A stretch of 54,926 nucleotides of DNA from an uncultured Chloroflexota bacterium (GTDB lineage Bacteria; Chloroflexota; Chloroflexia; Thermomicrobiales; UBA6265). The stretch is from contig CALMZR010000248.1 of NCBI GenBank assembly GCA_937870845.1, forward strand, positions 1 through 54,926. Reading direction: 5' to 3'. A program made the position numbers and the translations under genes. This document shows, in pieces, positions 3,160 through 43,847 of this stretch. Numbering within the stretch: the stretch's first letter is position 1; every line of letters begins with the position of its first letter. The notes under the pieces were generated by a model, which had not been told where the DNA came from, did not search any database, and saw only the letters and a list, made by a program, of their open reading frames with translations.

Positions 3160-3927
3160 ATGAACCGTCACGTCGTCAGCACCGCTCCGTCCGCGACCGA
3201 GACGCCGCGGGACGATTGGCTTCGCGCCGGAATCCTGGCCGGATTTCTGGCGACGTTCGCCATGACGGTCGTGCTGGTCGCCGCGTACTGGCTGGCCAGG
3301 GCCGTGGGCGACCCCGATGGCGGGGTGTTGCAGCAGTGGAGCTGGGGGCTGGTCAACAATCCGGTGGCGGAGATGACGACCGATTCCGTGGTGCTCGCCA
3401 TCGGCGTAAACCTGGCGATGGGTCTGATCCTGGCCGCCGTCTATGCCCGCTTCGTCGAGCCGCGGCTGGACGGACCGAGCTGGTGGCGGGGGGTGCGGTT
3501 TGCGCTCGTGCCCTGGATCCTGTCGCTGATCGTCTTCTTACCGCTGCTGAGCGGCGGCATGATGGGGATGGGGATTGGAGCCGGTCCGCTGCCGATTCTT
3601 GGCAATCTCATCCTGCATCTGGTCTACGGCGCGGTGCTTGGCCTGGTTTACGCCGAGGCGGCTGAGGATTGGCTCGACGACACCGATGCCGACCGGGCGA
3701 ATGCGGCGGGCGCGGAGCGCGGCGCAGCCTTGGGCGTCGTTATCGGGCTGCTCGTAGGAATCGTCGTCGGTTGGCTTGCCGGCCCAATGTTCGAGGGTCT
3801 GGCCAGCCGCCCCGCGAGCGCCATCGGTCTCGCGTTCATCGGGGCGGCCGTTGGCCTGGGAGTCGGTTCCTTCGCCGGCATGAGCCGGGCGCAGGACGTG
3901 GCGGGCGGCTCGACGGCTCGGCGCTAG
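3160..3927 (+). CDS. Hypothetical integral membrane protein (about 6 hydrophobic segments)
   Basis: ATG preceded by AAGGGGAG. Repeated hydrophobic stretches (ILAGFLATFAMTVVLVAAYWL, VVLAIGVNLAMGLILAAVY, LVPWILSLIVFLPLL and others). I do not recognise a family. Confidence 0.65.
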   Translation: MNRHVVSTAPSATETPRDDWLRAGILAGFLATFAMTVVLVAAYWLARAVGDPDGGVLQQWSWGLVNNPVAEMTTDSVVLAIGVNLAMGLILAAVYARFVEPRLDGPSWWRGVRFALVPWILSLIVFLPLLSGGMMGMGIGAGPLPILGNLILHLVYGAVLGLVYAEAAEDWLDDTDADRANAAGAERGAALGVVIGLLVGIVVGWLAGPMFEGLASRPASAIGLAFIGAAVGLGVGSFAGMSRAQDVAGGSTARR

Positions 3928-6150: not shown

Positions 6151-6222
6151 GCGAGATCCTTTGGAGTGGGCGGCGCCATCGGCCGCCGTGCGGCCTGAAT
6201 AGAGAAACGAAGGAGCAGACTC

Positions 6223-8495: not shown

Positions 8496-8637
8496 TCAAT
8501 TGTCTGAAAATGACCGTTGGTCGGGCGGGTCACTGATACCGGCGACGAGCCAGAGCCGAACGGCGAACACACCGGAACTGTCTGGCGATGACGGCGGTCT
8601 ACGTATCAACCAACCGCCGCTCTTCTCCGGCTGAGGA

Positions 8638-9234
8638 TCAGAAGCCGCACGCCTCCAGCCCGCCGTTCTGGCCGGCGAGGAAGGCGATGGCGCGCTCGGA
8701 TTGGGTGCCGTGGATCGCTTCGTCGAAGGGGACTGCCCACCAGACGTCGCCCGCGGCTTGCGTCAATTGCAGGGCGAGCGTGCCGATGACCGGATTGATC
8801 AGATCCGATTCTGTGGCGTAGGCGATGAACGCGCCGGCGAAGCAGTCGGCCTGCAACTCGTACTCGATGGCGCTGCCCACGCCGGTGTCAGTCTGGATCT
8901 GGATGTGGTGGCCCCACTCGTGGCTGATCAGCGTCAGCAATGCGATCAGGGAATCCGGTCCCACGAATCCGGTGGAGATGGTGATCTCGTTGCTGCTGGG
9001 GCAATAGGCGGCTGGGACGGCGAAACTGTCGAGGAAGCCGCAGAAATCGGTCCCCGGCGCGTCCACCAGCTCCAGCCGCGGTGAGCTATAGGACAACCCT
9101 CGCTCAGCGAAAGCGGCCGCCCACCAGGCGTCCAGCTCGGCGTAGATCAGATCCGAGGTGCTCTGCGCCCGCGCCACACTGGGCGCCAAGAGCGCCAGCA
9201 CAACCGCCAGCGCCAACACGATTCGCCGCGCCAT
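8638..9234 (-). CDS. Secreted neutral zinc metallopeptidase-like protein (YpfJ-like core), paralog 1
   Basis: Signal peptide MARRIVLALAVVLALLAPSVARA. HEWGHH zinc motif followed by ELQADCFAG. GGAGGGG precedes the ATG. Confidence 0.72.
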   Translation of the reverse strand: MARRIVLALAVVLALLAPSVARAQSTSDLIYAELDAWWAAAFAERGLSYSSPRLELVDAPGTDFCGFLDSFAVPAAYCPSSNEITISTGFVGPDSLIALLTLISHEWGHHIQIQTDTGVGSAIEYELQADCFAGAFIAYATESDLINPVIGTLALQLTQAAGDVWWAVPFDEAIHGTQSERAIAFLAGQNGGLEACGF

Positions 9235-9339
9235 CCCGTATCCCCTCCGTTCTTCCCTCGACGGATTGCGACCCTTCCCAGGAGTCGCTTTCAGTCTACG
9301 GGGTGGGGGCGCTGCTGGCTACCGGCTGCGCGCTGTGGG

Positions 9340-9948
9340 CTACCCGCCGAAGCCGCAATCGGTCACGTCGCCGTTCATGCCGGTCATGAAGGCGAGGGCG
9401 CGCTCGGACTTCGTGCCGTGGGCGGGGGCGTCGTGGGGCAGGAAGAACCAGACGTCGCCCGCGGCCTGGGTGAGCTGCATGGCCTGGGTGACGGCGGCGG
9501 GGCTGACGAGGCCGGCGTCGGCGGCGTGGCCCATGTAGGCGCCGGCGAAGCAATCGGCCTGCTGCTCGGCTTCGAGCACGGTGGTCACGCCGGTGTCGGC
9601 CTGCCATTGGATGTGGTGACCCCATTCATGGCTGAGCACCGTCCACCAGAGGATTTCGGCGGAGGGATCGTTCGGGCCCCAGGCGGTGGAGAAATAGACC
9701 GTCAGGTCGGCGGCGCAGTAGGCGCCGGGGCTGACGTACGGGTCGATGGGCCCGCACGAGGTCGACATCGGGCCGTCGATCGACCTCACGCCGGGTGAGG
9801 CATAGCTCAAGCCGGCGTTGGCGAACTGTTGGGCCCAGAAGGCGTCGATGTCGCCGACGACGAGCTCGATCGTGGACTGGGCGGCCGCTGGTGGCGGGGT
9901 CAGCAACGCCAAGACGGCAATCACGACGATGAGAAACCGAATTCGCAT
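9340..9948 (-). CDS. Secreted neutral zinc metallopeptidase-like protein, paralog 2
   Basis: Start at ATG 9948 after GGAGGA. Signal MRIRFLIVVIAVLALLTPPPAAA. It carries the same HEWGHH and QQADCFAG motifs and the same C-terminal DCGF as paralog 1. Confidence 0.72.
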   Translation of the reverse strand: MRIRFLIVVIAVLALLTPPPAAAQSTIELVVGDIDAFWAQQFANAGLSYASPGVRSIDGPMSTSCGPIDPYVSPGAYCAADLTVYFSTAWGPNDPSAEILWWTVLSHEWGHHIQWQADTGVTTVLEAEQQADCFAGAYMGHAADAGLVSPAAVTQAMQLTQAAGDVWFFLPHDAPAHGTKSERALAFMTGMNGDVTDCGFGG

Positions 9949-18678: not shown

Positions 18679-19092
18679 TTGGAGCTGAGAGACGACGTGC
18701 GCGCATTCCTGGACGAGCCGCGCTTCGGGGTGCTGGGCACGGTGAATGGCGACGGCAGCCCGCAGCAGACGGTGATGTGGTACGTGCTGCGCGGCGGCAC
18801 GGTGATGATGAACACCAGGCGGGGCCGCAAGAAGGACCGCAACCTGCTGCGCGATGCGCGGGCCTCCCTCTGCATCGAAGACGGCTTCCGCTACGTGACG
18901 CTCGACGGAACCATCCGCATGGTCGAGGATCAAGACGTCGCCCAGGCCGATATCGCCGCCCTCGCGCGCCGGTACCATGACGCGGACGAGGCCGAGCGAA
19001 TGGCGCGCGACGTGTTCGCTCCCCAGGAACGAATTTCTTTGCTGCTCAGCTTCGACCGCGTCGACGTCCACGGGTTCGACGGCGAGGAGTGA
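18679..19092 (+). CDS. PPOX-class (pyridoxamine 5'-phosphate oxidase-like) probable F420-dependent oxidoreductase
   Basis: FLDEPRFGVLGTVNGDGSPQQTVMWYVL...NTRRGRKKDRNL is the split-barrel pattern. TTG 18679 follows GGGGGAG (the ORF track start 18622 is an alternative). It sits immediately upstream of cofD. Confidence 0.78.
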   Translation: MELRDDVRAFLDEPRFGVLGTVNGDGSPQQTVMWYVLRGGTVMMNTRRGRKKDRNLLRDARASLCIEDGFRYVTLDGTIRMVEDQDVAQADIAALARRYHDADEAERMARDVFAPQERISLLLSFDRVDVHGFDGEE

Positions 19093-19095
19093 GCG

Positions 19096-20046
19096 GTGAT
19101 CGTCGCGCTCGCGGGCGGCGTCGGGGGAGCCAAGATGGCGCACGGCTTGCAGGCCGCGCTGCCGCCGGGCGCGCTGACGACCATCGTCAACACGGCCGAC
19201 GACTTCGACCTGTACGGATTGCGCATCTGCCCCGATCTCGATACCGTCATGTACACCCTGGCCGGGATTGCCGATCCGGTTAACGGGTGGGGCGTGGCGG
19301 GGGACAGCCGCAACACGCTCGATGCCATCGCCCGGTACGGCGAGCATCCATGGTTCCTCCTGGGCGACCAGGACTTCGCCACCCACATCCTGCGCACCGA
19401 GCGATTGCGAGCTGGAACGCCGCTCTCCGCGGTCACGGCGGAGCTCGCCGCGTCCCTCGGCATACCCGGACGCATCCTGCCCATGACCGACGATCGGGTG
19501 GCTACCTTGATCGATACCCCTTCGGGGCGGCTGGAGTTCCAGGAGTACTTCGTCGCCCGGCGCCAGAGCGACGACGTGCTCGGCGTCGTTTTCGCCGGGA
19601 TCGACGAGGCGACAGCGAACGCCGGTGTCCTCGATGCCATTCGCGATGCCAAGACGATCGTCGTCGCGCCGTCGAATCCGATCGTCAGCGTGGGACCGAT
19701 CCTGGCCACGCCGGGAATCCGCGCGGCGCTGGAGCGGACGGAGGCGCCGATCGTGGCGGTCAGCCCCATCGTCGGCGGGCGGGCGCTCAAAGGGCCGGCG
19801 GCGCAGATGCTGGCCACGCTCGGCCACGAGGTCTCGGCGCTGGGCGTGGCGCGGTTGTATGCCAGTCTGGTGGATGGGATGGTCATCGATGCCGCCGACC
19901 GCGAATTGACCGCGGAGATCGAACGGCTCGGGCCGCGGGTGCTCGTGACGGAAACGGTGATGGGCGACGAAGCGGATCGGAGGCGGTTGGCGGCCGAGGT
20001 GCTCGAGTTCGCCGGCTCGCTTGCCTTGCATCGGATGGCCGTTTAG
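19096..20046 (+). CDS. cofD: 2-phospho-L-lactate transferase (F420 biosynthesis)
   Basis: IVALAGGVGGAKMAHGL, TIVNTADDFDLYGLRICPDLDTVMYTLAG and NPIVSVGPIL are typical of CofD/FbiA. Confidence 0.93.
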   Translation: MIVALAGGVGGAKMAHGLQAALPPGALTTIVNTADDFDLYGLRICPDLDTVMYTLAGIADPVNGWGVAGDSRNTLDAIARYGEHPWFLLGDQDFATHILRTERLRAGTPLSAVTAELAASLGIPGRILPMTDDRVATLIDTPSGRLEFQEYFVARRQSDDVLGVVFAGIDEATANAGVLDAIRDAKTIVVAPSNPIVSVGPILATPGIRAALERTEAPIVAVSPIVGGRALKGPAAQMLATLGHEVSALGVARLYASLVDGMVIDAADRELTAEIERLGPRVLVTETVMGDEADRRRLAAEVLEFAGSLALHRMAV

Positions 20047-20065
20047 GTTGGCGACCCGTGATTCG

Positions 20066-20833
20066 ATGGGCCAAACGCCACGTACCCCGCGTCAAGCAGT
20101 GCAGGCAGCGCTCCCGCCGCAGGCGATCTTCGAGGCTGGCGGTTCGCCAGTGAGCATCCACGCGAGCCGCGAGCAAATCGTCGCGATCGTGCCGATTCGC
20201 TCGTTCCGCAACGGCAAGACGCGCTTGACGCCTGTGTTCGATCGCGAGGCGAGGGAGGCGCTCTTGCGGGCCACGGCAGAGGGCGTCGTTGCCGCCGGGC
20301 GCAACGCCGAATGCGTCGAGACGGTGCTGGTCGTCAGCCCTGATGCCGAGGTTCTGGCGTGGGCAACCCGGATGGGACCGGGCGTGGCCCCCCTGGCTCA
20401 ATCAGGTTCGATGCCGGGTCTCAACGGGGCGATCGCGGCGGGCCGGGAATGGGCGCTTGCCGCAGGGGCGACCGCTATTCTCTCGTTGTTCGCCGACTTG
20501 CCGTTTCTTACCGAGGACGACATACACACCCTTGTCGCGCGCCCCGAGCCGGTCGTCCTCGGCCCAGATCGGCACGGTGAGGGCACGAATGCGTTGCTGC
20601 TCCGGCTTCCCGACAGCGGCGCCGCGTTCCAGTTCGCGTTCGGCGAAGGCAGTCTGAACCGGCACATCGACGAGGCGCGGAGACTCGGGCTTGACGCGGG
20701 GATCGTGCGCGCCCCTGGGCTCGCATTCGACCTCGATACGCCTGGGGATTGGGCCGACTATCTAACGGCGCGGCGCGAGTGGGTCATCGAGGCCGAGCCA
20801 TGTTTGCTGCCGTGTCGGGCGGGCATCGCGTGA
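20066..20833 (+). CDS. cofC: 2-phospho-L-lactate / PEP guanylyltransferase (F420 biosynthesis)
   Basis: IVAIVPIRSFRNGKTRL and the GTNALLL pattern indicate a CofC/FbiD-like protein. Start uncertain (ATG 20066 or GTG 20150). Confidence 0.8.
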   Translation: MGQTPRTPRQAVQAALPPQAIFEAGGSPVSIHASREQIVAIVPIRSFRNGKTRLTPVFDREAREALLRATAEGVVAAGRNAECVETVLVVSPDAEVLAWATRMGPGVAPLAQSGSMPGLNGAIAAGREWALAAGATAILSLFADLPFLTEDDIHTLVARPEPVVLGPDRHGEGTNALLLRLPDSGAAFQFAFGEGSLNRHIDEARRLGLDAGIVRAPGLAFDLDTPGDWADYLTARREWVIEAEPCLLPCRAGIA

Positions 20834-21609
20834 AGGCCGCGGGCGGCGAGGTCCGCATCATCGGCATCGACGGCATCCCCGAGGTGGCCGCGGGCGACGA
20901 CCTGCCTGCGTTGCTCGGCGAGGCCATCGCGGAGTCCGGCGCCGGCCTGCAAGCGGGCGACATCGTGGTCGTCACGCACAAGATCGTCTCCAAAGCCGAG
21001 GGGCGGATCGTCGATCTCACGACGGTCGAGCCGTCGCTGCTGGCGACGCAGTGGGCAAACCGGTGGGGGAAGGATCCGCGCAAGATCGAGGTGGTGCTGC
21101 GGGAGTCGCGGCGCATCGTGCGCATGCACAACGGGCTGATCATCGCCGAGACGGCGCACGGGCTCGTCTGCGCCAACGCGGGGGTGGATGCCTCGAATGC
21201 CGCGCCGGACGCGGTCGTCCTGCTACCAGAAGATCCTGATGGTTCCGCCGCGAAGCTGCGGGAGGCGCTCAGGCGACGGTTCGGGTTCGGCGAGAGCGAT
21301 GCTCCAGCCGTCATCGTCAGCGATTCGTTCGGCCGGCCCTGGCGGCACGGAATCGTCAACGTCGCGATCGGGGTAAGCGGCATGGCTCCGCTGGTCGATT
21401 ACCGCGGTCAGACCGACGCCGCCGGGTACGAGCTGTCGGCATCAATCCTGGCCGTCGCGGACGAGGCCGCCTCCGCCGCCGAGTTGGTAATGCACAAACT
21501 GGCGGGGCGGCCGGTGGCCATCGTTCGAGGATACCTGTCTCCGTTGGCAGGTTCGTCGGGAACCGGAAAAGACCTGATCATGGAGGCGGAGCGGGACCTG
21601 TTTCGGTAA
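20830..21609 (+). CDS. cofE: Coenzyme F420-0:L-glutamate ligase, stand-alone (no C-terminal nitroreductase domain)
   Basis: GDIVVVTHKIVSKAEGR, GLVCANAGVDASN and SDSFGRPWRHGIVNVAIG. The GTG start overlaps the cofC stop (GTGA at 20830-20833). Confidence 0.9.
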   Translation: MKAAGGEVRIIGIDGIPEVAAGDDLPALLGEAIAESGAGLQAGDIVVVTHKIVSKAEGRIVDLTTVEPSLLATQWANRWGKDPRKIEVVLRESRRIVRMHNGLIIAETAHGLVCANAGVDASNAAPDAVVLLPEDPDGSAAKLREALRRRFGFGESDAPAVIVSDSFGRPWRHGIVNVAIGVSGMAPLVDYRGQTDAAGYELSASILAVADEAASAAELVMHKLAGRPVAIVRGYLSPLAGSSGTGKDLIMEAERDLFR

Positions 21610-21646
21610 GATCGCGCGGCATCGCGCGAAGGAGAAAAGCGGGACC

Positions 21647-22642
21647 ATGGGCACGGTGGGCTACGCGGCGTCGATGGAGCAGTTCGCCCCGAGCGACTTG
21701 CTGCGCTACTGCCAGCTGGCGGAGGACCAGGGGTTTGCCGCGGTGATGGCGTCGGACCATTTCAATCCCTGGGTGCCTTCGCAGGGGGAGTCAGGGTTCG
21801 TCTGGTCGTTCATGGGGGCGCTGGGAGCGACGACGAAGCTTCGCTTCGGGCCGGGGGTGACGCCGCCGGGGTATCGCTACCACCCGGCCATCATCGCCCA
21901 GGCGGCGGCGACGCTGGAAGAGATGTATCCCGGCCGCTTCTACCTCGGGCTCGGCGCGGGCGAGGCGCTCAACGAGCACATCGTCGCCCAGTACTGGCCC
22001 GAGGCGCCGATCCGGCTCGAGCGGCTGATGGAGTCGATCGAGATCATCCAGAAGCTCTTCACCGGCAAGAAGATCAAGCACCGGGGCACGCACTTCACCC
22101 TGGAGAGCGCCCGCCTGTGGACGATGCCCGAATCCCCGCCGCCGATCTACGTGGCGACCTCGGGCCCGATCATGGCCTACCGCACCGGGAAGTTCACGGA
22201 TGGGCTGATTACGGTGGGCGCCGCCGACGAGAAGCTGAAAATGCTCCTGGAGCGGTACGAGACGGGAGCGCGCGAGGCGGGCAAAGACCCGGCGACGATG
22301 CCGAAGATGCTGCAGGTGAAAGTCTCGTACGCGCCGACGGTGGAGGAAGCGACCGAGCGGGCGGTGCAGGACTGGCCGAACGGCGGCATGGCCTTCCCCA
22401 AGGGGGACATCCGGGAGCCGGAAGACTTCGAAGCGATGGCCAAGCTCGTCCGCCCGGACAACTACAAGAACCGCGTTCTCATCGCCTCCGACCCGGACGA
22501 GCACGTGGCATACCTGCAGCACTTCATCGATCTCGGCTTCGGCGAGATCTACGTCCACAACGTCGGCCGCGGCCAGGAACCGTTCATCAAGGTTTATGGG
22601 GAGCGGGTGATCCCGAAGCTGCGCTGGCCGGACGGAGGGTGA
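21647..22642 (+). CDS. LLM-class F420-dependent oxidoreductase, glucose-6-phosphate dehydrogenase (Fgd) family
   Basis: GYAASMEQFAPSDLL..., ASDHFNPW and FYLGLGAGEALNEHI. GAAGGAG precedes the ATG. Confidence 0.88.
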   Translation: MGTVGYAASMEQFAPSDLLRYCQLAEDQGFAAVMASDHFNPWVPSQGESGFVWSFMGALGATTKLRFGPGVTPPGYRYHPAIIAQAAATLEEMYPGRFYLGLGAGEALNEHIVAQYWPEAPIRLERLMESIEIIQKLFTGKKIKHRGTHFTLESARLWTMPESPPPIYVATSGPIMAYRTGKFTDGLITVGAADEKLKMLLERYETGAREAGKDPATMPKMLQVKVSYAPTVEEATERAVQDWPNGGMAFPKGDIREPEDFEAMAKLVRPDNYKNRVLIASDPDEHVAYLQHFIDLGFGEIYVHNVGRGQEPFIKVYGERVIPKLRWPDGG

Positions 22643-22715
22643 CAGGGTGACGGGGTGTCCGGGTGTTAGGATCAACCTATTCCCTGACACCCTGACACCT
22701 TGAGACCCTGTCACC
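22635..22715. repeat. Repeat family R1 copy 3
   Basis: gagggtgacagggtgacggggtgtccgggtgttagg ... ccctgacaccctgacaccttgagaccctgtcacc form imperfect inverted arms. The fgd-like stop TGA (22640-22642) lies inside the first octamer. Confidence 0.8.
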
Positions 22716-22720
22716 AATCG

Positions 22721-22731
22721 CCTGCTATACT
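22721..22731 (+). promoter_or_regulatory. Candidate extended -10 promoter (TGcTATACT) for the riboswitch-led operon
   Basis: cctgcTATACTcg places a transcription start about 5-8 nt before riboswitch stem P1 (22743). Confidence 0.4.
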
Positions 22732-22742
22732 CGCCCCGTCAA

Positions 22743-22885
22743 GCCTTCGGGGTTGTGGTGAGGCCGTCGAGTTATGGCGGCCAAGTCCCGACCGGCGGTA
22801 GAGCCCGCGAGCGAGCGCGCGACGTCGCGCAAGCACGATCCGGTGAGATTCCGGAGCCGACGGTACAGTCCGGATGGGAGAAGGC
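22743..22885 (+). promoter_or_regulatory. FMN riboswitch (RFN element) aptamer
   Basis: P1 is gccttc...gaaggc. The conserved RFN blocks are present in order: CTTCGGGG..GGTG..GTCCCGACCGGCGGTAGAGCCCGCGAGCG....ATCCGGTGAGATTCCGGAGCCGACGGTACAGTCCGGATGGGAGAAGG. This closely parallels the Bacillus subtilis ribD leader as I remember it. Confidence 0.87.
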
Positions 22886-22950
22886 GTGCGGGCGGCGGCG
22901 GCCGATGACGGCCCCGGCCGTTCGTGGCGCTTTGCCGAAACGTCGACAAC

Positions 22951-22974
22951 GCCCGGAGGATGATTCCTCCGGGC
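22951..22974 (+). terminator. Candidate riboswitch expression-platform hairpin (terminator or RBS sequestor)
   Basis: gcccggagga-tgat-tcctccgggc gives a perfect 10-bp stem followed by gctcttgtg. It lies between the aptamer and the first ORF start. Confidence 0.45.
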
Positions 22975-23016
22975 GCTCTTGTGCCCGGGGTCGCTTCGTG
23001 CAGCCGGGCGCCGTCG

Positions 23017-23961
23017 ATGGTCGGACTCCTCGTCAATCGAATGTTCTTCGCCGTGGCTGTGCTGTTTGGCGTGGTCAGCGTCACGTTTGCCCTGATGCAC
23101 CTGGCGGGCGATCCGCTGGCGGGGTTGATCCCGCCGGGCGCGCCGCCCGACGTCGAGAACGACATCCGGCGCAGCTACGGTCTCGACCGTCCGGTCCCGG
23201 AGCAGTACCTCGATTTCGCGAGCCGGGCGATGCGCGGGGATTTTGGCGAGTCGTGGCGTCAGGGCCGGCCGGCGCTGGCGGCGGTGCTGGAACGGTTGCC
23301 GGCGACGATGGCCCTGGCGTCCCTGGCGATTGCCCTCGCGATCCTTGTCGGCGGGTTCCTGGGCGTGGCCGCGGCGGCGCGGCCGGGTTCGCCGTGGGAC
23401 GCCGGAGCACGGCTGGCCGCGCTGCTGGGGCAGGCGATACCCGCGTTCTGGCTCGGCACGATGCTGATCCTCGTGTTCGCCGTCGATCTGCGCTGGTTGC
23501 CCGCGTCCGGGCTGCCCGGCCCCGCTGGGGTCATCCTGCCGGCGCTTGCGCTGGCGGCGTACCCGGCCGCGACGCTGATGCGATTGCTGCGGGCATCGAT
23601 GGTGGAGACCCTGGGCGCCGACTACATCCGCACGGCGCGGGCCAAAGGGCTATCTCGACGGCGAATACTGCTTGAACACGCGTTGCGCAACGCCGCGTTG
23701 CCGGCGCTGGCGTTCACCGGGCTGCAGGCCGGGTTCCTCCTCGGCGGGGCGGTTATCGTGGAGGGGGTGTTCGCCTATCCCGGGATCGGCGGCTTGGCGC
23801 TCGATGCCGTTGCGACGCGCGACATCCCGCTGGTGGAAGCGTTCGTCTGGGTGGTGGCGCTCCTCATCCTGGGGGTCAACACGCTGGCTGGCCTGATCGC
23901 GGCGTGGATCGATCCCCGGCTGCGGGAGCGGGCGGCTGCGTTCGGGGGCGCGGCGCCATGA
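23017..23961 (+). CDS. ABC transporter permease, DppB/OppB type
   Basis: N-terminus MVGLLVNRMFFAVAVLFGVVSVTFALMHLAGDP, and the EAA-loop region YIRTARAKGLSRRRILLEHALRNA. Confidence 0.88.
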   Translation: MVGLLVNRMFFAVAVLFGVVSVTFALMHLAGDPLAGLIPPGAPPDVENDIRRSYGLDRPVPEQYLDFASRAMRGDFGESWRQGRPALAAVLERLPATMALASLAIALAILVGGFLGVAAAARPGSPWDAGARLAALLGQAIPAFWLGTMLILVFAVDLRWLPASGLPGPAGVILPALALAAYPAATLMRLLRASMVETLGADYIRTARAKGLSRRRILLEHALRNAALPALAFTGLQAGFLLGGAVIVEGVFAYPGIGGLALDAVATRDIPLVEAFVWVVALLILGVNTLAGLIAAWIDPRLRERAAAFGGAAP

Positions 23962-24863
23962 ACGCGGTCGACTTCGCCGTCCGGCCGACGGCGGCTCAGG
24001 CGTCGCCGACGTCGCTGCCCCGGGCAGCGTTGCTCGGTTGGCCGGATACGGTTCGTTATTCGGGGAGCGCGGCGATTGGTCTGACGCTCCTCGCGGCGCT
24101 GGCGATGCTCGCCCTGATTGGGCCTGCCTGGTGGCCACTGCATCCGGAAACGCAGGACTTGGCGAACCGACTGGCTCCTCCGTGGGGATTCGGCGGCACG
24201 GCCGCCCATCCCCTCGGCACGGATTCGCTCGGCCGGGACACGCTGGCGCGGGTGATCGCCGGGGCGCGGGTCTCCTTGCCGTTGAGCGTCGCGGCGACCG
24301 CGGCCGCCGGTGTGGTTGGAGTAACGCTTGGTGTGCTGGCGGGGTATCGAGGTGGCTGGGTCGATGGGATCGTGTCGTGGCTCTCGGACGTTCAGCTGGC
24401 CATTCCGTTCGTGGTGTTCGCCATCGTCGTCACCGCGACGTTTGGCCATTCCGTCGCCAACATCCTGCTCACCCTCGTCGTCACCGGCTGGGTAGCGTAC
24501 GCACGGGTGATTCGGTTGCAGACGCAAGCGCTGCGGCAGGCAGCGTGGATGGAGGCCGCTCGGGCAATGGGGGCCGGGCCCGTGAGGTTGCTGGGAAGGC
24601 ATCTCCTGCCGAACCTGGCCGCGACCGTGGCGATTCTGGCGACCCAACAAGCGGGGGCGATGATCCTCTATGAGTCATCGCTCAGCTTCCTCGGGCTGGG
24701 TCTTGGCGGCAGCACGGTGACGTGGGGCGGCATGGCCGCGCTGGGGCGGGACGCGGTTTTCACGGCGCCGTGGGCCGCCGCCGTTCCGGGCGCGGTCATC
24801 GCCGCGGCGATGCTGGGGTTCAACCTGACCGGAGACTGGCTGGCGACGCGAGGTCGTCGCTAG
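23958..24863 (+). CDS. ABC transporter permease, DppC/OppC type
   Basis: HPLGTDSLGRDTLARVIAGARVSL and AARAMGAGPVRLLGRHLLPN. The ATG overlaps the upstream stop (ATGA). Confidence 0.88.
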   Translation: MNAVDFAVRPTAAQASPTSLPRAALLGWPDTVRYSGSAAIGLTLLAALAMLALIGPAWWPLHPETQDLANRLAPPWGFGGTAAHPLGTDSLGRDTLARVIAGARVSLPLSVAATAAAGVVGVTLGVLAGYRGGWVDGIVSWLSDVQLAIPFVVFAIVVTATFGHSVANILLTLVVTGWVAYARVIRLQTQALRQAAWMEAARAMGAGPVRLLGRHLLPNLAATVAILATQQAGAMILYESSLSFLGLGLGGSTVTWGGMAALGRDAVFTAPWAAAVPGAVIAAAMLGFNLTGDWLATRGRR

Positions 24864-24903
24864 AGTGGCTGTAGGGCGTCGCGCGACGCCGGAGGTGAGT
24901 TGG

Positions 24904-26523
24904 ATGAAGTATTCCCACGATTGGGAGCCGAGAGTCCTCGCTGGCGCTCGGAATGACACCCTTCGAGAGTGGCAGGATGCCAGGCGAGTGATGTCGCGGC
25001 GGTCGTTGCTGGGAATGGGCGCCGTTGCCGCGACCGGGCTCCTCGTACCCACGGGATTGCCCTCGGCGCGAGCGCTCCCGGCATCTCAGACGGACGCCGC
25101 GGGCGAGCTGACGATCGATCTGGCGGTCGAGCCGCCGACGCTCGACCCGGCGCTGGTGTACGAGGCGGATGGCTGGTCGGTGGTCCACTCGATCTACGAC
25201 GCGCCGGTGCAGCTCGGGCCGGGCGGGGCGCTGCAGATGGTGGCGGCCGAAGCGATGACCCAGGTCGACGACCTGACGTGGGAGATTCGGCTGCGGCCGG
25301 GGATCGCCTTCCACAACGGCGAGCCGCTGGAATCCTCGTCCATCGCCTTCTCCGTGGCTCATATCCTCGATCCGGAGACGGCCTCGCAAGTGGCCGGCTC
25401 GTTCGGCGTGATCGAGGAGGTCGAGGAGGTCGATTCCCTGACCGCGCGGTTGCTTCTCTCCACTCCCGCGCCGTGGCTGCCGTCGCAGATCGCGCCGTGG
25501 CTGGCGCTGCTGCCGCCGGAGTACGCGGGCGACCCCGCCAACGATTTCGCCAACAATCCCGTGGGTACGGGACCCTATCGGTTCGTGCGATGGGATCGCG
25601 GATCGCAAATCGTCCTGGAGCGGAACGAGCAATACCAGGCCAGCGGGGCAAAGGGTGAACCAATCGCGGGGAGCGTCACGGTCCGCTTCGTCGCGGATGG
25701 CACGACGCGCGTGACCGACATTGTCTCCGGCGCCAGTCAGCTCGTGCGATCTGTCCCGTTCGATCAGTTGCAGGTCGTCGCGGAGACTGCCGACGTGATC
25801 GCGCAGCCGATCGCGGGGTGCGCCTTCGTGCGCATTCCGACCGACGTCTCCCCGTTCGATAACCCGGCGGTGAGGCTGGCGATGAACCACGCGGTCGACG
25901 TGGAGGGCATTATCGCCGCGTTGTTTGGCGGCAACGGGGAGCGTTTGGCCAATGTGTTCGTCCCCGGCGGTCTCGGTTACGATGAGTCGCTGGCGCCGCA
26001 CGTGTACGATCCGGAGTTGGCGAGGCAGCTTCTGGCGGAAGCGGGCTTTGCGGATGGATTCAGTACGCGGCTGGCGCACACCACGAGCGACCGGGCCGAT
26101 CTGGCCGCCGCCGTGGCCGGGCAGCTCGCCGCGGTCGGCATCGAGGTGGCGCTGGAGCCGGTGGAGACGGCGACGTTCAATGCCACCTGGAAGGACCCTG
26201 AAGCGGCCCCGCTGCGATTTCTCACGTGGCGGCCGTTGTACGATCCGTTCACGCTGCTCGGCCTCGTCATCTCCAGCTCAGGATTTCTCTCCCGTTACAG
26301 CGATCCGGAGGCGCAAGCGTTGATCGAGGCGGGCGCGGCGGAGACCGATCCCGAGGAGCGGGATCGCCTCTACCGTGAGCTGGGCCAGGTCTTGCACGCA
26401 TCGCCGGCCGGCATCTATTTGTGGAGTTTGACGTCGTTCTACGGACTGTCTCGCGACGTGCAGGGATGGACGCCGCGGCCGGACGACTGGATTCTTCCCC
26501 TGGCCGCGGAGGGAGCATCGTGA
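24904..26523 (+). CDS. ABC transporter substrate-binding protein, family 5 (peptide/nickel type), Tat signal
   Basis: SRRSLLGMGAVAATGLL twin-arginine signal. NPVGTGPYRFVRWDRGSQIVLERNEQY is typical of SBP_bac_5. ATG 24904 follows GGAGGTG (alternative ATG 24991). Confidence 0.85.
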   Translation: MKYSHDWEPRVLAGARNDTLREWQDARRVMSRRSLLGMGAVAATGLLVPTGLPSARALPASQTDAAGELTIDLAVEPPTLDPALVYEADGWSVVHSIYDAPVQLGPGGALQMVAAEAMTQVDDLTWEIRLRPGIAFHNGEPLESSSIAFSVAHILDPETASQVAGSFGVIEEVEEVDSLTARLLLSTPAPWLPSQIAPWLALLPPEYAGDPANDFANNPVGTGPYRFVRWDRGSQIVLERNEQYQASGAKGEPIAGSVTVRFVADGTTRVTDIVSGASQLVRSVPFDQLQVVAETADVIAQPIAGCAFVRIPTDVSPFDNPAVRLAMNHAVDVEGIIAALFGGNGERLANVFVPGGLGYDESLAPHVYDPELARQLLAEAGFADGFSTRLAHTTSDRADLAAAVAGQLAAVGIEVALEPVETATFNATWKDPEAAPLRFLTWRPLYDPFTLLGLVISSSGFLSRYSDPEAQALIEAGAAETDPEERDRLYRELGQVLHASPAGIYLWSLTSFYGLSRDVQGWTPRPDDWILPLAAEGAS

Positions 26524-26561: not shown

Positions 26562-27668
26562 ATGAGCGAGCGTGGCCCGGAAGTGAGACTGGCCGGGCGC
26601 GGCGTGCGCGGGGACGATTGGGAGTTTGTCCGCGAGCGCCGGGTCGGCCGGTTGGCCACGGCGGATGCGGAAGGGACGCCGTCGGTCGTCCCGGTCGTCT
26701 ACGCGGCGCTCGTCCTCGACGAGGAACCGGTCATCGCCATTGCCATCGACGAAAAGCCGAAGGGCGACCCTTACCGGTTGCGGCGGGTCCGCAACATCCA
26801 GGAGCGCCCAGAGGTCGCCCTCCTCGTCGACGACTACGACGAGGATTGGTCGCGGTTGGCATGGGTGCTGGTGCGCGGCTCGGCGGCGCTTGCCGAGCCG
26901 GGCGACGCTGGGCACGGAGAGGCGATTGCGGGGCTGAGGGAGAAGTACCCGCAGTACGCGAGGATGCGCCTGGAATCGCTGCCGGCGATTCTGATACGGG
27001 GTCTGTCGATGCGCTTCTGGCAAGGCAGCGATGGCGGCGACGCCGCTCCGGAGCGCCCAGGCCGGCAGGAGCTGGCGGCGCTCGTCCGTGGCAGGCGTTC
27101 CGTGCGGGCGTTCGACTCGCGGCCCGTGCCGCGCGACGTCATCGAGGAGTCGATCGCGGCAGCTGGCTGGGCGCCGTCGCCGCATGGGCGGCAGCCGTGG
27201 CGGTTCGTCGTCGTCGAGTCGCAGGAACGTCGCGATGCGCTCGCGGACGCAATGGCCGAGACGTGGCGCGCCCAATTGCGGCTCGACGGTCAGGACCAAT
27301 CCACGGTGGAGGCGCGGCTGGTGAAGAGCAGGGACCGCTTGCACCGGGCGCCGGTCCTGATCGTACCCTGCCTCTATCTGGAAGGGCTCGACGTCTATCC
27401 GGACGGCGACCGGCAGCGAGCGGAGGAGACGATGGCGGTGCAGAGTTTGGGCGCCGCCGTGCAGAATCTGCTGCTGTCGCTGTACGCGGCCGGGGTTGAC
27501 GGCGGGTGGATGTGTGCGCCGCTCTTCTGCCCTGAGGTGGTTCAGGAGGTCCTCGGGCTCGGTCGTGCGCTGAACCCGCATGCATTGATCGCCGTCGGGT
27601 ACGCGGCGGCCGATCCGGTGCGCCGCCCGCGGATGCCGCTGCACGAGTTGATCGTCGATTGGCAGTGA
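26562..27668 (+). CDS. Two-domain fusion: N-terminal PPOX-class split-barrel domain plus C-terminal nitroreductase-fold domain resembling the FbiB C-terminal (dehydro-F420-0 reductase) domain
   Basis: N-terminal domain: RRVGRLATADAEGTPSVVPVVYA...RNIQERPEVALLVDDYDEDWSRLAWVLVRG. C-terminal domain: RRSVRAF, APSPHGRQPWRFVVV, WRAQLRLDG, YPDGDRQRAEETMAVQSLGAAVQNLLL, ALIAVGY. Confidence 0.75.
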   Translation: MSERGPEVRLAGRGVRGDDWEFVRERRVGRLATADAEGTPSVVPVVYAALVLDEEPVIAIAIDEKPKGDPYRLRRVRNIQERPEVALLVDDYDEDWSRLAWVLVRGSAALAEPGDAGHGEAIAGLREKYPQYARMRLESLPAILIRGLSMRFWQGSDGGDAAPERPGRQELAALVRGRRSVRAFDSRPVPRDVIEESIAAAGWAPSPHGRQPWRFVVVESQERRDALADAMAETWRAQLRLDGQDQSTVEARLVKSRDRLHRAPVLIVPCLYLEGLDVYPDGDRQRAEETMAVQSLGAAVQNLLLSLYAAGVDGGWMCAPLFCPEVVQEVLGLGRALNPHALIAVGYAAADPVRRPRMPLHELIVDWQ

Positions 27669-27995: not shown

Positions 27996-29324
27996 TCAGA
28001 ACAACCCGAGATAGCGGATCGACACGTAGATCGTCGAAACGACCAGGCTCACCAACGCGAACGGCAATCCGACGCGGGTGAACCCCCAGAAGCCGATATG
28101 GTCGCCCCTGCGGTCAGCGATCCCCACGGCGACGACGTTGGCCGACGCCCCGACCAGCGTGCCGTTTCCACCCAGGCAAGCTCCCAACGCCAGCGACCAC
28201 CAGAGCGGGGTCACCGATGGATGCGCCGCCAGGGCCATATCGTCCAGGCCCGCTAATTCCGGAAAGAGCAGCCGCGACATGGAAAACGTCAGCGGGATAA
28301 GCGTCGCCACCGCCGGGATGTTGTCGACCACCGCCGAGGCGATCCCGGCAAACCAGAGGAGTCCGATGGCGGCCAGCGCCACATTGCCTCCCACCAGCCC
28401 GATCACCGAGCGCGCCACCTGATCCATCAGCCCGACCGCCTCGATGCCGCCCACGACGATGAAGAGCCCGATGAAGAAGAAGATCGTCGACCACTCGACC
28501 TCGGCCAGCACGTCGTGCGGATCGATCCGGCTCAGGAGGAGCAGCGTCACGGCGCCGAAGACGGCGATCGTCCCGGCCTGGTAGTGCAGCACCCCGTGCA
28601 GGAAGAACCCGACAACCGTCAGCGCCAGCACGAGGAGCGAGATGCGCAGCAGCTTCGGGTCGCCGAGGTGGGCGGTGACGTCCGCCTCGACCAGAGCGTG
28701 CTGACTTTCCGGCGTCGGCGTGCCCAGCCGCCCGTTACGCCCGTACGCGAGCCAGAACCCTCCGATCATCATTGGCAGCAGGATCAGCACCAGCGGCCCG
28801 AGGTTCACCAGGAACGCCAGAAAATCGAGTCCAGTCGCTCCGCCGATGAGGATGTTCGGCGGATCGCCGATGAGGGTCGAGGTGCCGCCGATGTTGCTGG
28901 CGATCACCTGCGTGATCAGGAACGGGCGCGGGTCGAGCCCGAGATCGTCGCTGAGCGCGATGGTGACCGGGGCGATGAGCAGGATCGTGGTCACGTTATC
29001 CAGCAGCGCCGACGCCACGGCGGTGAAGAGCGCGAACCCAACCATCATCCGCCACGGGTCGCCGCCCAGCGCCACCGCCGTTCCCCAGGCGGCGAAGCGG
29101 AAAATGCCGGTCTGCCGCAGCACGTTGACGATGATCATCATGCCGACCAGCAGGGCGATGGTGTTGGGGTCGATCGCCCCCAGCGCCGACTCCTGGTTGA
29201 GCACGCCGAAGGCGATCATCGCCGCGCCCCCGGCCAGCGCCACCGTCGTCCGGTTCAGCCGCTCGCTGATGATCACCGCGTACGTGACGACGAAGATGAT
29301 CGTCGCGATCATCAGCTCCGACAT
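27996..29324 (-). CDS. ArsB/NhaD (IT superfamily) anion/cation permease
   Basis: MSELMIATIIFVVTYAVIISERLNRT..., SALLDNVTT and GGTSTLIGDPPNILIG. GGAGGGAGG precedes ATG 29324. Confidence 0.85.
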   Translation of the reverse strand: MSELMIATIIFVVTYAVIISERLNRTTVALAGGAAMIAFGVLNQESALGAIDPNTIALLVGMMIIVNVLRQTGIFRFAAWGTAVALGGDPWRMMVGFALFTAVASALLDNVTTILLIAPVTIALSDDLGLDPRPFLITQVIASNIGGTSTLIGDPPNILIGGATGLDFLAFLVNLGPLVLILLPMMIGGFWLAYGRNGRLGTPTPESQHALVEADVTAHLGDPKLLRISLLVLALTVVGFFLHGVLHYQAGTIAVFGAVTLLLLSRIDPHDVLAEVEWSTIFFFIGLFIVVGGIEAVGLMDQVARSVIGLVGGNVALAAIGLLWFAGIASAVVDNIPAVATLIPLTFSMSRLLFPELAGLDDMALAAHPSVTPLWWSLALGACLGGNGTLVGASANVVAVGIADRRGDHIGFWGFTRVGLPFALVSLVVSTIYVSIRYLGLF

Positions 29325-29501
29325 GCGCCCCTCCCTCCAGGACCGACCCGCATGCAGCAAGAAAGGGACCGCCCATTGGCAGTCCCCCCCGTCAGCCGCG
29401 CGGGTACGGGGTACGCGGCGCCCCCGAAACAGCAACTCTGTCGCGGCGTACAGTCTAACCGGATTGTGCTTCGCGCGCCTCTGGGTCGGCGCCACCCACC
29501 C

Positions 29502-29588
29502 GTGTCATTCCGACGAAGGAAGAACCTCGGCGTCCAGGAACGATCGTCTCGGCACGCCGAGACTCCTCGCTTGCACTCGGAATGACAC
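29502..29588. repeat. Repeat family R2, inverted pair (29502-29532 plus, 29556-29588 minus)
   Basis: gtgtcattccgacgaaggaagaacctcggcg and gccgagactcctcgcttgcactcggaatgacac. Confidence 0.72.
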
Positions 29589-29602
29589 GAGCGCAGCAGC
29601 CG

Positions 29603-31441
29603 TCAGGAAGCGGCCGGAACGACGAACCCCGACGCCACGTCGCTGCGCGACTCCGCCCCCACCTCAGCGTCGGCGCCGTCGGCATTGACCACGATCATGT
29701 TGGCCGAGCCGAAAACGCCCTCGCCAACCACGACGTCGTGCCCGCGTTCCACCAGCGCCTGCACCAGCGCGTCGGGAAATCCCGCCTCCATCTGAAGCTG
29801 ATTCCCTACCTCCCACGGATACGAACCATCCGGAAACGCGGTGCTGACGAAGCGCGGCGCGTCGATCGCTTCCTGAGCGCCCAGGGCGAAATCGACCACG
29901 TTGACGACCTGCTGCATCTGCCCCTGCGGCTGTGTATCGACGCCGGTATTGCCCCCGAGCAGATACGGGCGGCCCAGACGCAACGCCATGTACGGATTCG
30001 AGGTATGCCGCACCTTGGAGCCGGGGGTCAGCTCGTTGGCGTTGCCGTCCTCGACCGAGATCATGCGCATCCGGTTGTTGATGTGGATCCCGGTGTCGCC
30101 AATGAGAAAGAACTGGGCTCCAAGGCTTGTCGTCACCGCCGCCGCGTTGCCGAGGCGATCGACAACGTGGAAGGTCGTCGTGTGCGTCGGGTTCCTCCGG
30201 TCTGCGAGGCCGCCGGCAATCGGCCAGCGCAGCGCCTGGTTCATGTTGATGCGGTCGCGCTGACTGGCGGCGTAGTCGTCGGAGAGGAGCTGCTCGACCG
30301 GGATATCGATCCGATCCGGATCGCCCACGTACCAGTGCCGGTCGGCAAACGCCAGCTTCAGCGCCTCCACCTGCACGTGGACGACGTCCGGATCGTACCG
30401 CTCGAGGCCGGAGAAGTCGTACCCCTTGAGGGTGTTGAGGGCCAGCAGCATCGTGATGCCCTGGCTGTTCGGCGGGTTCTCGTAGACGGTGATCCCGTCG
30501 CGATAGTCGACGGCGATCGCCTCGACGATCTCGGCCTCGAACGACGCGAAATCCTCCAGCGTCAGATAGCCGCCCTCGCGATCGGAGACGGCCACGATCG
30601 CCTCCGCGATCGGACCCCGGTAGTAATAGTCGCGAGCCGCCTGGATGCCTTCGCTTCGCGAACCCTCCGCGCCCTCGTCATAGGCCCTGATCAGCGCCTC
30701 GAACGTGTTTCCCAGTTCTTCCTGGCGGATGACGTCGCCGGCCACGGGCAAAGCCCCCTGCGAGACGTACGTTCGCGCGCTGTCCGGATAGCTGGAGATG
30801 AACTCCGCCTCCCGCCCGAGCCAATACGCCATCTCCGTGCTGACCGGGTAGCCGTCCCGCGCCAGGCGCAGCGCCGGGGCGAGCACCTGCCCCAGATCGA
30901 GCTGGCCGTAGCGGTCGAGCCAGAGCATCCACCCGTCCCACGCGCCAGGCACGATCGATTGGTGCATCCCGATCGCCTCGGCCCGCGCCGCGTAATCCTC
31001 CCGCGTGGCGTCGCTCCCAACCGGCCCCACCCCGTCCAGGCTGGTGACGGCCCCGCGCCCCGCCTCGTAATAAAGCGCCCAGGTCCCGCCCCCCAGGGCG
31101 CTGGAAAAGAACGGCTCCACCACCGTCAGCGCGGCGGCGACGGCGATCGCCGCATCCGCCGCGGTCCCGCCCGCCGCCAGCGCCTCCCGGCCAGCGGCAG
31201 TCGCCAGCTCGTGCGAGGAGACGACTGCCTGGACGTGATCGCCCGGGCCGAGCTCGCCCTGCTGTGCCGCGGCGACGACGGCGCTCGCGGACAGGGGCGC
31301 CCCCACGGCGCCGGCGATCAGCGCGCCTCCTGTAGCGCGGCTGAGGTCCGTCAGGAACTCCCGACGGGATAGACCGTGCATTTCGGTTGACGACGTGCGC
31401 TGGCGCGGGCGTCTCGAAGGAATCTGACGATGCTGCGACAT
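29603..31441 (-). CDS. ggt: Gamma-glutamyltransferase, Tat signal
   Basis: SRREFLTDLSRATGGALIAGAVG signal. GGTAADAAIAV, and the autoprocessing-site region PTHTTTFHVVDRLGNAAAVTTSLG. Start at ATG 31441 after AAGGA (alternative ATG 31381). Confidence 0.88.
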   Translation of the reverse strand: MSQHRQIPSRRPRQRTSSTEMHGLSRREFLTDLSRATGGALIAGAVGAPLSASAVVAAAQQGELGPGDHVQAVVSSHELATAAGREALAAGGTAADAAIAVAAALTVVEPFFSSALGGGTWALYYEAGRGAVTSLDGVGPVGSDATREDYAARAEAIGMHQSIVPGAWDGWMLWLDRYGQLDLGQVLAPALRLARDGYPVSTEMAYWLGREAEFISSYPDSARTYVSQGALPVAGDVIRQEELGNTFEALIRAYDEGAEGSRSEGIQAARDYYYRGPIAEAIVAVSDREGGYLTLEDFASFEAEIVEAIAVDYRDGITVYENPPNSQGITMLLALNTLKGYDFSGLERYDPDVVHVQVEALKLAFADRHWYVGDPDRIDIPVEQLLSDDYAASQRDRINMNQALRWPIAGGLADRRNPTHTTTFHVVDRLGNAAAVTTSLGAQFFLIGDTGIHINNRMRMISVEDGNANELTPGSKVRHTSNPYMALRLGRPYLLGGNTGVDTQPQGQMQQVVNVVDFALGAQEAIDAPRFVSTAFPDGSYPWEVGNQLQMEAGFPDALVQALVERGHDVVVGEGVFGSANMIVVNADGADAEVGAESRSDVASGFVVPAAS

Positions 31442-31485
31442 CTTGGGGTCCTTGCGGTCGCGTACCCCCGCGCCGGCGCTGCCGC

Positions 31486-38741: not shown

Positions 38742-38836
38742 GGGGGCGGATGGGGCCCGGTGGCCTCCCCAGTCTTCAAAACTGTGCGAGTGGGGGCATT
38801 CCCCTCACTGGTGGGTTCGACTCCCATGCGCCCTCG
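38742..38836 (+). tRNA. selC: tRNA-Sec (selenocysteine), anticodon TCA
   Basis: 95 nt. Anticodon loop CTTCAAA (TCA at 38776-38778). 6-bp D stem ggggcc/ggcctc with a 4-nt loop cggt. Long variable arm agtggggg/cccctcact. T arm gtggg-ttcgact-cccat. 7-8 bp acceptor stem, discriminator G. The layout parallels E. coli selC. Confidence 0.82.
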
Positions 38837-43767: not shown

Positions 43768-43805
43768 CGCTGTACCCCTTGTCCGCCCCTTACCCCCGGT
43801 GAAGG

Positions 43806-43847
43806 CCCCGCTCCCATCGCGAAGGGAGAGGGGCTGAGGTGAGGGCC
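43806..43847 (+). repeat. Repeat family R3 copy, inside an operon (intercistronic)
   Basis: ccccgctcccatcgcgaagggagaggggctgaggtgagggcc. Confidence 0.6.

Follow-up and report, generated by a model that had tools for sequence, protein, structure and literature searches.

Organisation of the locus

The stretch of DNA analysed here, referred to throughout as the window, is a 54,926-nt contig (CALMZR010000248.1) from an uncultured Chloroflexota bacterium of the order Thermomicrobiales. Near its middle a flavin mononucleotide (FMN) riboswitch stands at the head of a forward-strand operon that encodes two ATP-binding cassette (ABC) permeases of the Dpp/Opp type, a family-5 substrate-binding protein (SBP) carrying a twin-arginine translocation (Tat) signal, and an enzyme resembling FbiE, which acts in the maturation of the deazaflavin cofactor F420. 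The features of the leader and the operon are as follows.

22723 to 22731, + strand: extended -10 promoter element TGcTATACT (from sequence); inferred transcription start at about the first aptamer base
22739 to 22889, + strand: FMN riboswitch aptamer (RF00050), its P2 hairpin extended in a clade-specific manner (Rfam match)
22743 to 22752, + strand: P1 5' strand and junction J1/2 (GCCUUCGGGG), proposed antiterminator partner of the terminator 5' arm (duplex search)
22889 to 22924, + strand: GC-rich hairpin 1, directly 3' of the aptamer, conserved in position (folds of all leaders)
22950 to 22983, + strand: terminator hairpin (stem 22950-22975) with degraded U-tail CUCUUGUG (energy-based search)
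23017 to 23961, + strand: DppB/NikB-like ABC permease (permease B), 314 amino acids (Pfam BPD_transp_1, 117.8 bits, with BPD_transp_1_N; public gene call)
23958 to 24863, + strand: DppC/NikC-like ABC permease (permease C), 301 amino acids (Pfam OppC_N and BPD_transp_1)
24904 to 26523, + strand: family-5 binding protein (SBP_bac_5) with Tat-type signal SRRSLLG (Pfam, 232.6 bits)
26562 to 27668, + strand: FbiE-like PPOX-nitroreductase fusion, 368 amino acids (NCBIfam, PDB)

An earlier reading of the window made from the sequence only had described an operon of ATGA-coupled DppB- and DppC-like permeases followed by a Tat-dependent family-5 binding protein, and both the Pfam assignments and the coordinates confirm this: the start of permease C overlaps the stop of permease B in the ATGA at 23958-23961. 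The start codon of permease B is conserved in position in most leaders examined, and the arginine pair of the Tat signal is nearly invariant among orthologues of the binding protein, whose true start may lie near 24991. The sequence-only reading ended the operon at 26523; its transporter genes stand, but the operon extends further, as the FbiE-like gene that begins 38 nt after the SBP stop codon (26562-27668) had been omitted.

The leader contains a canonical FMN aptamer

When the whole window was scanned against Rfam, RF00050 gave a single match that covers the complete model (positions 1-138) with 83.9 bits, the gathering threshold being 66.2 (E 1.1e-17). The sequence-only reading had placed the aptamer at 22743-22885, and the Rfam match, at 22739-22889, bears this out. 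Orthologous leaders reach 72.5-92.5 bits with the same model, and all of those tested lie above the gathering threshold except that of L026 (L numbers denote the related loci described below). Covariation and the ligand-binding junction were analysed in an alignment of 31 leader sequences, in which the junction core varies little or not at all and compensatory changes are found at 14 of the 38 pairs predicted by RNAalifold, with P2, P3 and P4 all covarying.

In FMN aptamers the stacking and pairing contacts with the ligand are those of A48, A85 and A99, and the ribityl- and phosphate-binding contacts those of G10, G11, G32, G62 and G84 (3F2Q numbering); rare variants that reject FMN have adenosines in place of guanosines that contact the ribityl or phosphate groups (PMC6298564). 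The conserved junction guanosines are all intact in our leader alignment, with no G-to-A change at all, in a comparison made with these positions at the level of junction motifs. A variant riboswitch of altered specificity is rejected on account of the retained guanosines, and FMN is the expected ligand, because the aptamer core is canonical and lacks such substitutions.

The P2 helix of the window (22764-22788) has a covarying, clade-specific extension of about 25 nt. The extension is larger by a further 15-20 nt in L037 (5673-5852), L040 (7046-7225) and L041 (7558-7728), where P3 is also enlarged. L041 additionally carries a thiamine pyrophosphate riboswitch (6084-6192; 58 bits, gathering threshold 54.3) about 1.4 kb upstream of its FMN riboswitch operon, so that two leaders that sense vitamins are neighbours in this genome.

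The riboswitch and the transporter genes occur together in related loci

A scan with the SBP, restricted to one genome per species, yielded 54 loci, onto which the window proteins and the aptamer were mapped. The order aptamer, permease B, permease C, SBP is found in all 36 loci that include upstream DNA, so that the association of RF00050 with SBP_bac_5 operons for which the sequence-only reading had proposed to search is borne out without exception among them. These 36 riboswitch loci come from Thermomicrobiales or other Chloroflexota metagenome-assembled genomes and extend down to approximately 42% SBP identity. About 50 genomes of uncultured Thermomicrobiales keep the arrangement. Database relatives of the binding protein number more than 1000, and those that are named are all assigned to Thermomicrobiales, Chloroflexia or Chloroflexota metagenome-assembled genomes.

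In a neighbour-joining, midpoint-rooted tree of the SBPs, the riboswitch-linked proteins form one family apart from two outgroups that have no riboswitch, L052 and L054. The latter, from Chelativorans (29% identity), has the order permease, permease, ATPase, ATPase, SBP. The family comprises a large branch with one SBP and FbiE, to which the window belongs, a branch with two SBPs and FbiE, and derived stand-alone operons with two SBPs; the FbiE link is present in both main branches. Within 10 kb of the derived stand-alone operons no F420 genes were found in the two loci with annotated flanks. Judged from these comparisons, the invariant pairing is that of riboswitch and transporter, and the FbiE link appears ancient and widespread though not universal. 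The transporter itself is probably a target of the switch, because the stand-alone two-SBP operons retain the riboswitch with no F420 genes nearby.

Tandem paralogous family-5 SBPs are present in L037, L040, L041, L044, L047, L048/L060 and L061, with duplications in more than one branch of the tree, and suggest that a single permease pair may handle two related compounds, such as one flavin and one deazaflavin.

In cultured Sphaerobacter, FMN riboswitches occur only before ribYX and the rib operon, and Thermomicrobium roseum is listed as possessing the riboflavin pathway with no known transporter (PMC4418817). The system described here seems to be confined to uncultured Thermomicrobiales lineages, which may be why it has gone unnoticed.

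A conserved promoter and terminator suggest an OFF switch

The promoter-like TGcTATACT box remarked on in the sequence-only reading is confirmed at 22723-22731 and by its counterparts elsewhere: nearly all of the 36 orthologous leaders have a TAnnnT hexamer at a constant spacing from the aptamer, and in most of them TTGACG lies about 17 nt upstream of this hexamer. Because a promoter is conserved before the aptamer, the riboswitch operon is its own transcription unit, independent of the cof genes upstream.

The -35-like TTGAGA of the window (22700-22705) lies inside a short repeat array:

22682 to 22713, + strand: about four tandem CCCTGACA-like repeats with an 8-nt period, in the -35 region (from sequence)

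Inverted copies at 22636-22651 give rise to a 33-nt imperfect inverted repeat (region 22636-22715). The closest relatives have other 8-nt units at the same -35 position, either CTTGCCGT (about five copies) or CGACTnnC (about nine copies), as seen in L002 (48-89), L007 (7656-7695) and L046 (7547-7626), whereas distant loci have a plain TTGACG -35 box instead. Such repeats might serve as an array of operators, render the promoter prone to slippage or terminate transcription of the upstream gene.

Beyond the aptamer and hairpin 1, the leader of the window folds into a hairpin with a perfect 11-bp stem (22950-22975; dG -23.9 kcal/mol). A perfect hairpin had been noted at this place before, correctly except that its stem was given as 10 bp, and it had not been recognised as the orthologue of canonical intrinsic terminators. 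An energy-based search with a lenient and a strict rule locates a hairpin followed by a U-rich tail in 34 of 36 leaders under the former and 26 of 36 under the latter, and the tails after the orthologous hairpins are mostly of the UUUUUUGU type. A consensus terminator scan returned no terminator in the leader region of the window, because its U-tail, CUCUUGUG, is degraded. We read the window hairpin as an intrinsic terminator, since the orthologous hairpins carry a U-tract.

For 18 of 31 leaders the best upstream duplex partner of the terminator 5' arm is the invariant P1 5' strand together with J1/2 (AGCCUUCGGGG), at -14 to -19.5 kcal/mol. An 8-bp pairing of this kind, between 22744-22751 and 22952-22959, is possible in the window, as worked out by hand and not computed. 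FMN binding and the antiterminator would compete for the P1 5' strand and J1/2, and on this basis the riboswitch is predicted to be an OFF switch, a direction for which the family as a whole, and not the window by itself, provides the basis.

The transporter components are distant from characterised importers

The best NCBIfam models for the two permeases are nickel and peptide permeases, with scores below cut-off. Indeed, every score of the operon components against the NCBIfam equivalogs of the Dpp, Opp, Nik, Gsi and Cnt systems falls short of its cut-off, for example 285 against 350 for Opp2B, 219 against 300 for Opp2C, 147 against 594 for GsiB and 100 against 393 for NikA. An AlphaFold2 model of the binding protein was built from a 57-sequence alignment spanning 41-78% identity and has a mean predicted local distance difference test score (pLDDT) of 88.6; an earlier model from 17 close orthologues (pLDDT 59.7) was discarded. 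In the PDB the model matches family-5 SBPs with a Foldseek probability of 1.00, template modelling scores (TM-scores) of 0.7-0.8 and 19-26% identity. The structural neighbours bind glutathione, opines, sialic acid, nickel chelates and peptides, a picture with which a sequence-profile search of the PDB agrees, and the modelled fold accordingly does not point to any particular ligand. The sequence-only reading had named a close grouping of the SBP with peptide or nickel binders of known function as evidence against its proposal; no such grouping is observed, identity to characterised binders being 26% at most.

These data bear on the possibility that what the system imports is unrelated to flavins, for instance a peptide, a metal chelate or an opine-like compound, and that the riboswitch is there mainly for fbiE, the transporter simply sharing its transcript. 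Such an arrangement would be in keeping with a family-5 fold that is common to peptide, nickel and opine binders and with permeases whose best, sub-threshold scores are against nickel and peptide permease models. We nevertheless regard it as improbable, given that the riboswitch always lies directly before the permease gene and is kept in operons that lack FbiE and contain transporter genes only, and that no equivalog cut-off is reached and no characterised binder exceeds 26% identity.

The operon contains no ATPase gene

A six-frame motif scan combined with Pfam detected no Dpp/Opp-type ATPase gene in the operon or anywhere in the 54.9-kb window, and in none of the Thermomicrobiales loci examined does an ABC ATPase gene lie next to the operon. 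The absence of DppD and DppF genes from the operon and its vicinity, to which the sequence-only reading had drawn attention, extends to the whole window and to the immediate surroundings of the operon in the related loci. The only two ABC ATPases of the window are not DppD/F-like:

within 42619 to 43842, - strand: MalK/PotA-like ATPase (ABC_tran and TOBE_2; Pfam), in its own complete operon at 42.6-47.1 kb
52765 to 53670: ATPase with ABC_tran only (Pfam)

Tandem ATPases lying 5-9 kb downstream of the operon in L005, L013 and L019 were considered as possible partners; those of L005, the one locus of the three that was scanned, were rejected because they belong to a sugar-type CUT2 transporter (Peripla_BP_4, a fused ATPase and BPD_transp_2).

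Inspection of the translations by eye shows that the permeases retain the ATPase-coupling loop motifs TARAKGLS... and EAARAMGAG..., and because these are kept the permeases should still dock ABC ATPases. By analogy, DppD/F-type ATPases from genes at other places in the genome would power the importer; this is plausible because RibXY operons, which occur in the same phylum and also usually lack an ATPase gene, provide a precedent (PMC3766115).

It is formally conceivable that the permeases and SBP, having no ATPase genes in the 55-kb window or next to the operon in the loci examined, are a non-functional remnant in decay. In L062 the SBP gene and a nearby ATPase gene are both fragmented (1103-3505 and 8551-9864), whether through assembly frameshifts or real decay. 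We give this explanation very little credence, since intact reading frames persist, together with conserved start codons, Tat motif and coupling loops, down to about 42% SBP identity in a family of more than 1000 homologues, the regulatory RNA covaries and SBP duplications have arisen in more than one branch, an overall pattern of purifying selection.

The operon ends with an FbiE-like gene and adjoins F420 genes

The N-terminal half of the FbiE-like protein is a PPOX/FDOR domain that scores above cut-off with TIGR03668 (142 bits). Its C-terminal nitroreductase half reaches 178.8 bits with TIGR03553 (cut-off 249.55) and 181.7 with PRK13294 (cut-off 304), and its best PDB match is the FbiB C-terminal domain from Mycobacterium tuberculosis (4xom, 113.6 bits), well ahead of BluB and other nitroreductases. 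In mycobacteria this domain of FbiB reduces dehydro-F420-0 with reduced FMN (FMNH2), and the homologue of T. roseum, FbiE, is a stand-alone protein (PMC8498797); FMNH2-dependent reduction of dehydro-F420-0 by the T. roseum homologue is credited to Braga et al. 2020, as cited in PMC8498797. By homology, the riboswitch operon thus very probably ends with an FMN-dependent F420-maturation enzyme, a predicted dehydro-F420-0 reductase.

In 46 loci the gene after that of the SBP is an FbiE gene, at a median gap of about 15 nt and in some cases with a 4-nt overlap. It encodes a stand-alone nitroreductase of approximately 210 residues in about eight of them, which are among L012, L015, L017, L027, L033, L035, L043, L055 and L063, and a PPOX/FDOR fusion of approximately 355 residues in the rest. 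Reverse look-ups show that FbiE homologues sit downstream of the same transporter, and source annotations call them 'FbiB-like'.

The sequence-only reading had the operon directly after F420 biosynthesis genes, and these are present as described:

18679 to 22642, + strand: F420 genes, a separate transcription unit directly upstream (Pfam, NCBIfam and public gene calls), made up of
18679 to 19092, + strand: PPOX
19096 to 20046, + strand: CofD
20066 to 20833, + strand: CofC
20800 to 21609, + strand: CofE
21647 to 22642, + strand: Fgd orthologue, luciferase-like (PDB 9hav, 524.7 bits)

We infer that 9hav is Fgd of T. roseum from its 54 chains, which fit the description in PMC12750041. CofD, CofC, CofE and Fgd lie directly upstream of the riboswitch operon in about 15 loci and not in others. 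No rib genes were found in the window, and neither there nor in the F420 clusters examined was a synthase gene seen for Fo, the head group of F420. In L006, L012, L030 and L031 the DNA between the F420 cluster and the riboswitch likewise holds no Fo synthase or rib genes; the inserts encode a LuxR-TPR regulator, an AMP-binding enzyme, a beta-lactamase-fold protein, a DinB protein and proteins of no assigned family.

Just downstream of the operon, on the - strand, the window encodes a CitMHS/ArsB-type anion transporter and a gamma-glutamyltranspeptidase (27996-31471). The latter is not conserved in L001, L060, L061 and L063, the distant loci with annotated flanks, and any connection with the gamma-glutamyl tail of F420 would be speculative. 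At 38742-38835 lies a selenocysteine tRNA (RF01852, 66.5 bits), which implies selenoprotein use in this genome.

A model for FMN-controlled uptake and the nature of the substrate

According to the model that we favour, a sigma-70-type promoter would drive a leader comprising the canonical FMN aptamer and the intrinsic terminator. When FMN is plentiful, its binding would lock P1 and J1/2, allowing the terminator to form and transcription to stop before the genes. When FMN is scarce, the P1 5' strand and J1/2 would instead pair with the 5' arm of the terminator, and read-through would give a transcript of four genes, for the two permeases, the Tat-exported SBP and the FbiE-type reductase. The products of the first three would form an SBP-dependent flavin importer, most likely for riboflavin, that opens a salvage route at low FMN with DppD/F-type ATPases supplied from elsewhere, and co-expression of FbiE would tie F420 maturation to flavin status. 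We think the odds lean, though not heavily, towards an FMN-repressed flavin importer of this kind, most likely for riboflavin, with its ATPases encoded elsewhere.

By analogy with systems under the same control, riboflavin (or FMN, or flavin adenine dinucleotide) is the most likely substrate: transporters found under FMN riboswitches so far are known or proposed riboflavin importers (PMC4418817, PMC6298564), and RibXY, ImpX, RfnT and RibZ have been shown to rescue a riboflavin auxotroph (PMC4418817). It is favoured also because loci that lack F420 genes still pair the riboswitch with the transporter.

Several points weigh against the model. Two concern the switch in the window itself, where the top-scoring partner of the terminator 5' arm is, by a slight margin, 22884-22895 and not the P1 5' strand, and where the U-tail of the terminator is weak. 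The others concern its logic: FbiE is FMN-dependent, so that repression by FMN is not an obvious design for pure riboflavin salvage, and in most lineages the operon lies in or beside F420 genes, which would point equally well to a deazaflavin substrate.

Fo and riboflavin synthesis compete for a shared precursor, 5-amino-6-ribitylamino-uracil. This raises the possibility that the system salvages deazaflavins, importing Fo or F420 to feed CofD, CofC, CofE and FbiE; at low FMN the precursor would thereby be spared for riboflavin, and the riboswitch would couple deazaflavin supply to flavin status. An OFF switch is compatible with such sparing. Of all the genes, FbiE shows the tightest link to the transporter (46 loci), a link that is reciprocal and present in both main SBP branches, and the coupling is probably ancestral; CofD-CofC-CofE-Fgd lies directly upstream in the 15 or so loci mentioned above; and the F420 clusters examined have no Fo synthase gene, the transporter being placed where an Fo supply function would fit. 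Furthermore, F420 has a gamma-glutamyl tail, and the best NCBIfam match of the SBP together with several of its top PDB matches (GsiB/YliB, GbpA/HbpA) bind gamma-glutamyl compounds. However, the SBP resembles GsiB only weakly (147 bits, cut-off 594), which may reflect no more than subfamily ancestry, and Fo synthase may lie elsewhere in these genomes; cultured T. roseum produces F420 in abundance (PMC8498797). The aptamer is of the canonical FMN-binding kind and not a variant, the riboswitch remains with the transporter in a derived sub-branch that has no F420 gene within 10 kb, and FMN-riboswitch transporters have so far been known or proposed riboflavin importers (PMC4418817). We therefore consider deazaflavin import a possibility to be taken seriously, if a rather doubtful one. 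It should be noted that FMN repression of an FMN-dependent enzyme is poorly explained by the riboflavin and deazaflavin models alike.

Significance

FMN-riboswitch-linked transporters have been the main route to the discovery of bacterial riboflavin importers. If the riboflavin model is correct, the Dpp/Opp family would be a structurally unrelated addition to these importers, and the ligands of family-5 SBPs would extend to flavins. New transporter families are to be expected because many bacteria have no known riboflavin transporter: 72 lack both the riboflavin pathway and any known transporter, and a further 720 species that bear the pathway, T. roseum included, have no known transporter (PMC4418817).

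An FMN-dependent F420-maturation enzyme would, moreover, lie inside an FMN regulon across a whole order of abundant soil Chloroflexota. We know of no importer described for Fo or F420, and of no regulatory link between flavin status and F420 biosynthesis. Should the deazaflavin model hold, the system would be the first Fo/F420 importer and its leader the first flavin-sensing riboswitch to govern the supply of a deazaflavin cofactor, FMN scarcity leading to Fo/F420 import and more FbiE in place of use of the shared riboflavin precursor. A review of F420 contains neither 'uptake' nor 'riboswitch' and names a transporter only as a possible exporter (PMC8498797). The ATPase-less operon also offers a clean case for ATPase sharing among PepT-family importers.

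Comparison with known systems

The riboflavin transporters covered by published surveys are RibU/ECF, RibM/PnuX, ImpX, RibN, RfnT, RibXY, RfuABCD, RibZ and RibV (PMC3766115, PMC4418817, PMC6298564), and known ones fall into COG3601, COG3201, COG0697, TauC/ThiY-like, COG1744/3845/4605/1079 and major facilitator (MFS)-type families (PMC4418817, PMC6298564). Compared by description of their domain families only, the window components (two BPD_transp_1 permeases and SBP_bac_5) match none of them. The view of the sequence-only reading that no Opp/Dpp-type transporter has been linked to an FMN riboswitch agrees with the 2013 and 2015 surveys and a 2019 summary of gene associations, none of which includes one (PMC3766115, PMC4418817, PMC6298564), and we found no Dpp/Opp-type system under an FMN riboswitch in the searchable literature, targeted full-text searches included. 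The operon is probably an undescribed flavin (or deazaflavin) uptake system, in which an importer from a different transporter family stands under an FMN riboswitch and is wired to F420 maturation. The proposal of the sequence-only reading, a candidate new flavin or deazaflavin uptake system of the Dpp/Opp type, is supported by the pairing in 36 of 36 loci, by the canonical, covarying aptamer and by an SBP with 19-26% identity to structurally solved binders.

Other transporter genes behind FMN-type aptamers are those of norM and emrB in Clostridioides difficile, where the riboswitches are variants with G-to-A changes that reject FMN and are predicted ON switches of efflux pumps (PMC6298564); the window family differs in having a canonical core and an OFF-type terminator platform before an importer. 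The nitroreductase half of the FbiE-like protein is most similar to the FbiB C-terminal domain (4xom, TIGR03553, PRK13294), and its gene, when compared with those of FbiB and T. roseum FbiE, likewise has a position in or next to cofC/cofD/cofE clusters. In contrast to these, the protein is usually fused to PPOX/FDOR, lies with a transporter behind an FMN riboswitch and scores below the NCBIfam cut-offs.

With DppABCDF, GsiABCD and NikABCDE the operon has in common two homologous permeases and a family-5 SBP, in the order of the Chelativorans outgroup operon, and an SBP fold with TM-scores of 0.7-0.8 to GsiB/YliB, GbpA, DppA and NikA. It departs from them in its lack of DppD and DppF genes, its FMN riboswitch, equivalog scores far below cut-off and an SBP identity of at most 26%. 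RfuABCD of spirochaetes is likewise an SBP-dependent ABC importer, for riboflavin, and its homologue in Spirochaeta smaragdinae has an FMN riboswitch (PMC4418817), but it consists of a BMP-family SBP (COG1744), a fused double ATPase and BPD_transp_2-type permeases, which are unrelated to the window components.

RibXY(Z), as represented by Caur_0816-0817 of Chloroflexus aurantiacus and Sthe_1453 of Sphaerobacter, is found in the same phylum and is an SBP-dependent ABC importer under an FMN riboswitch, usually with no ATPase gene (PMC3766115, PMC4418817). It is related to ThiXYZ and has a single, TauC-type permease and a ThiY-type SBP, whereas the operon described here combines two Dpp/Opp-type permeases and a family-5 SBP with an F420-maturation enzyme in the same transcription unit.

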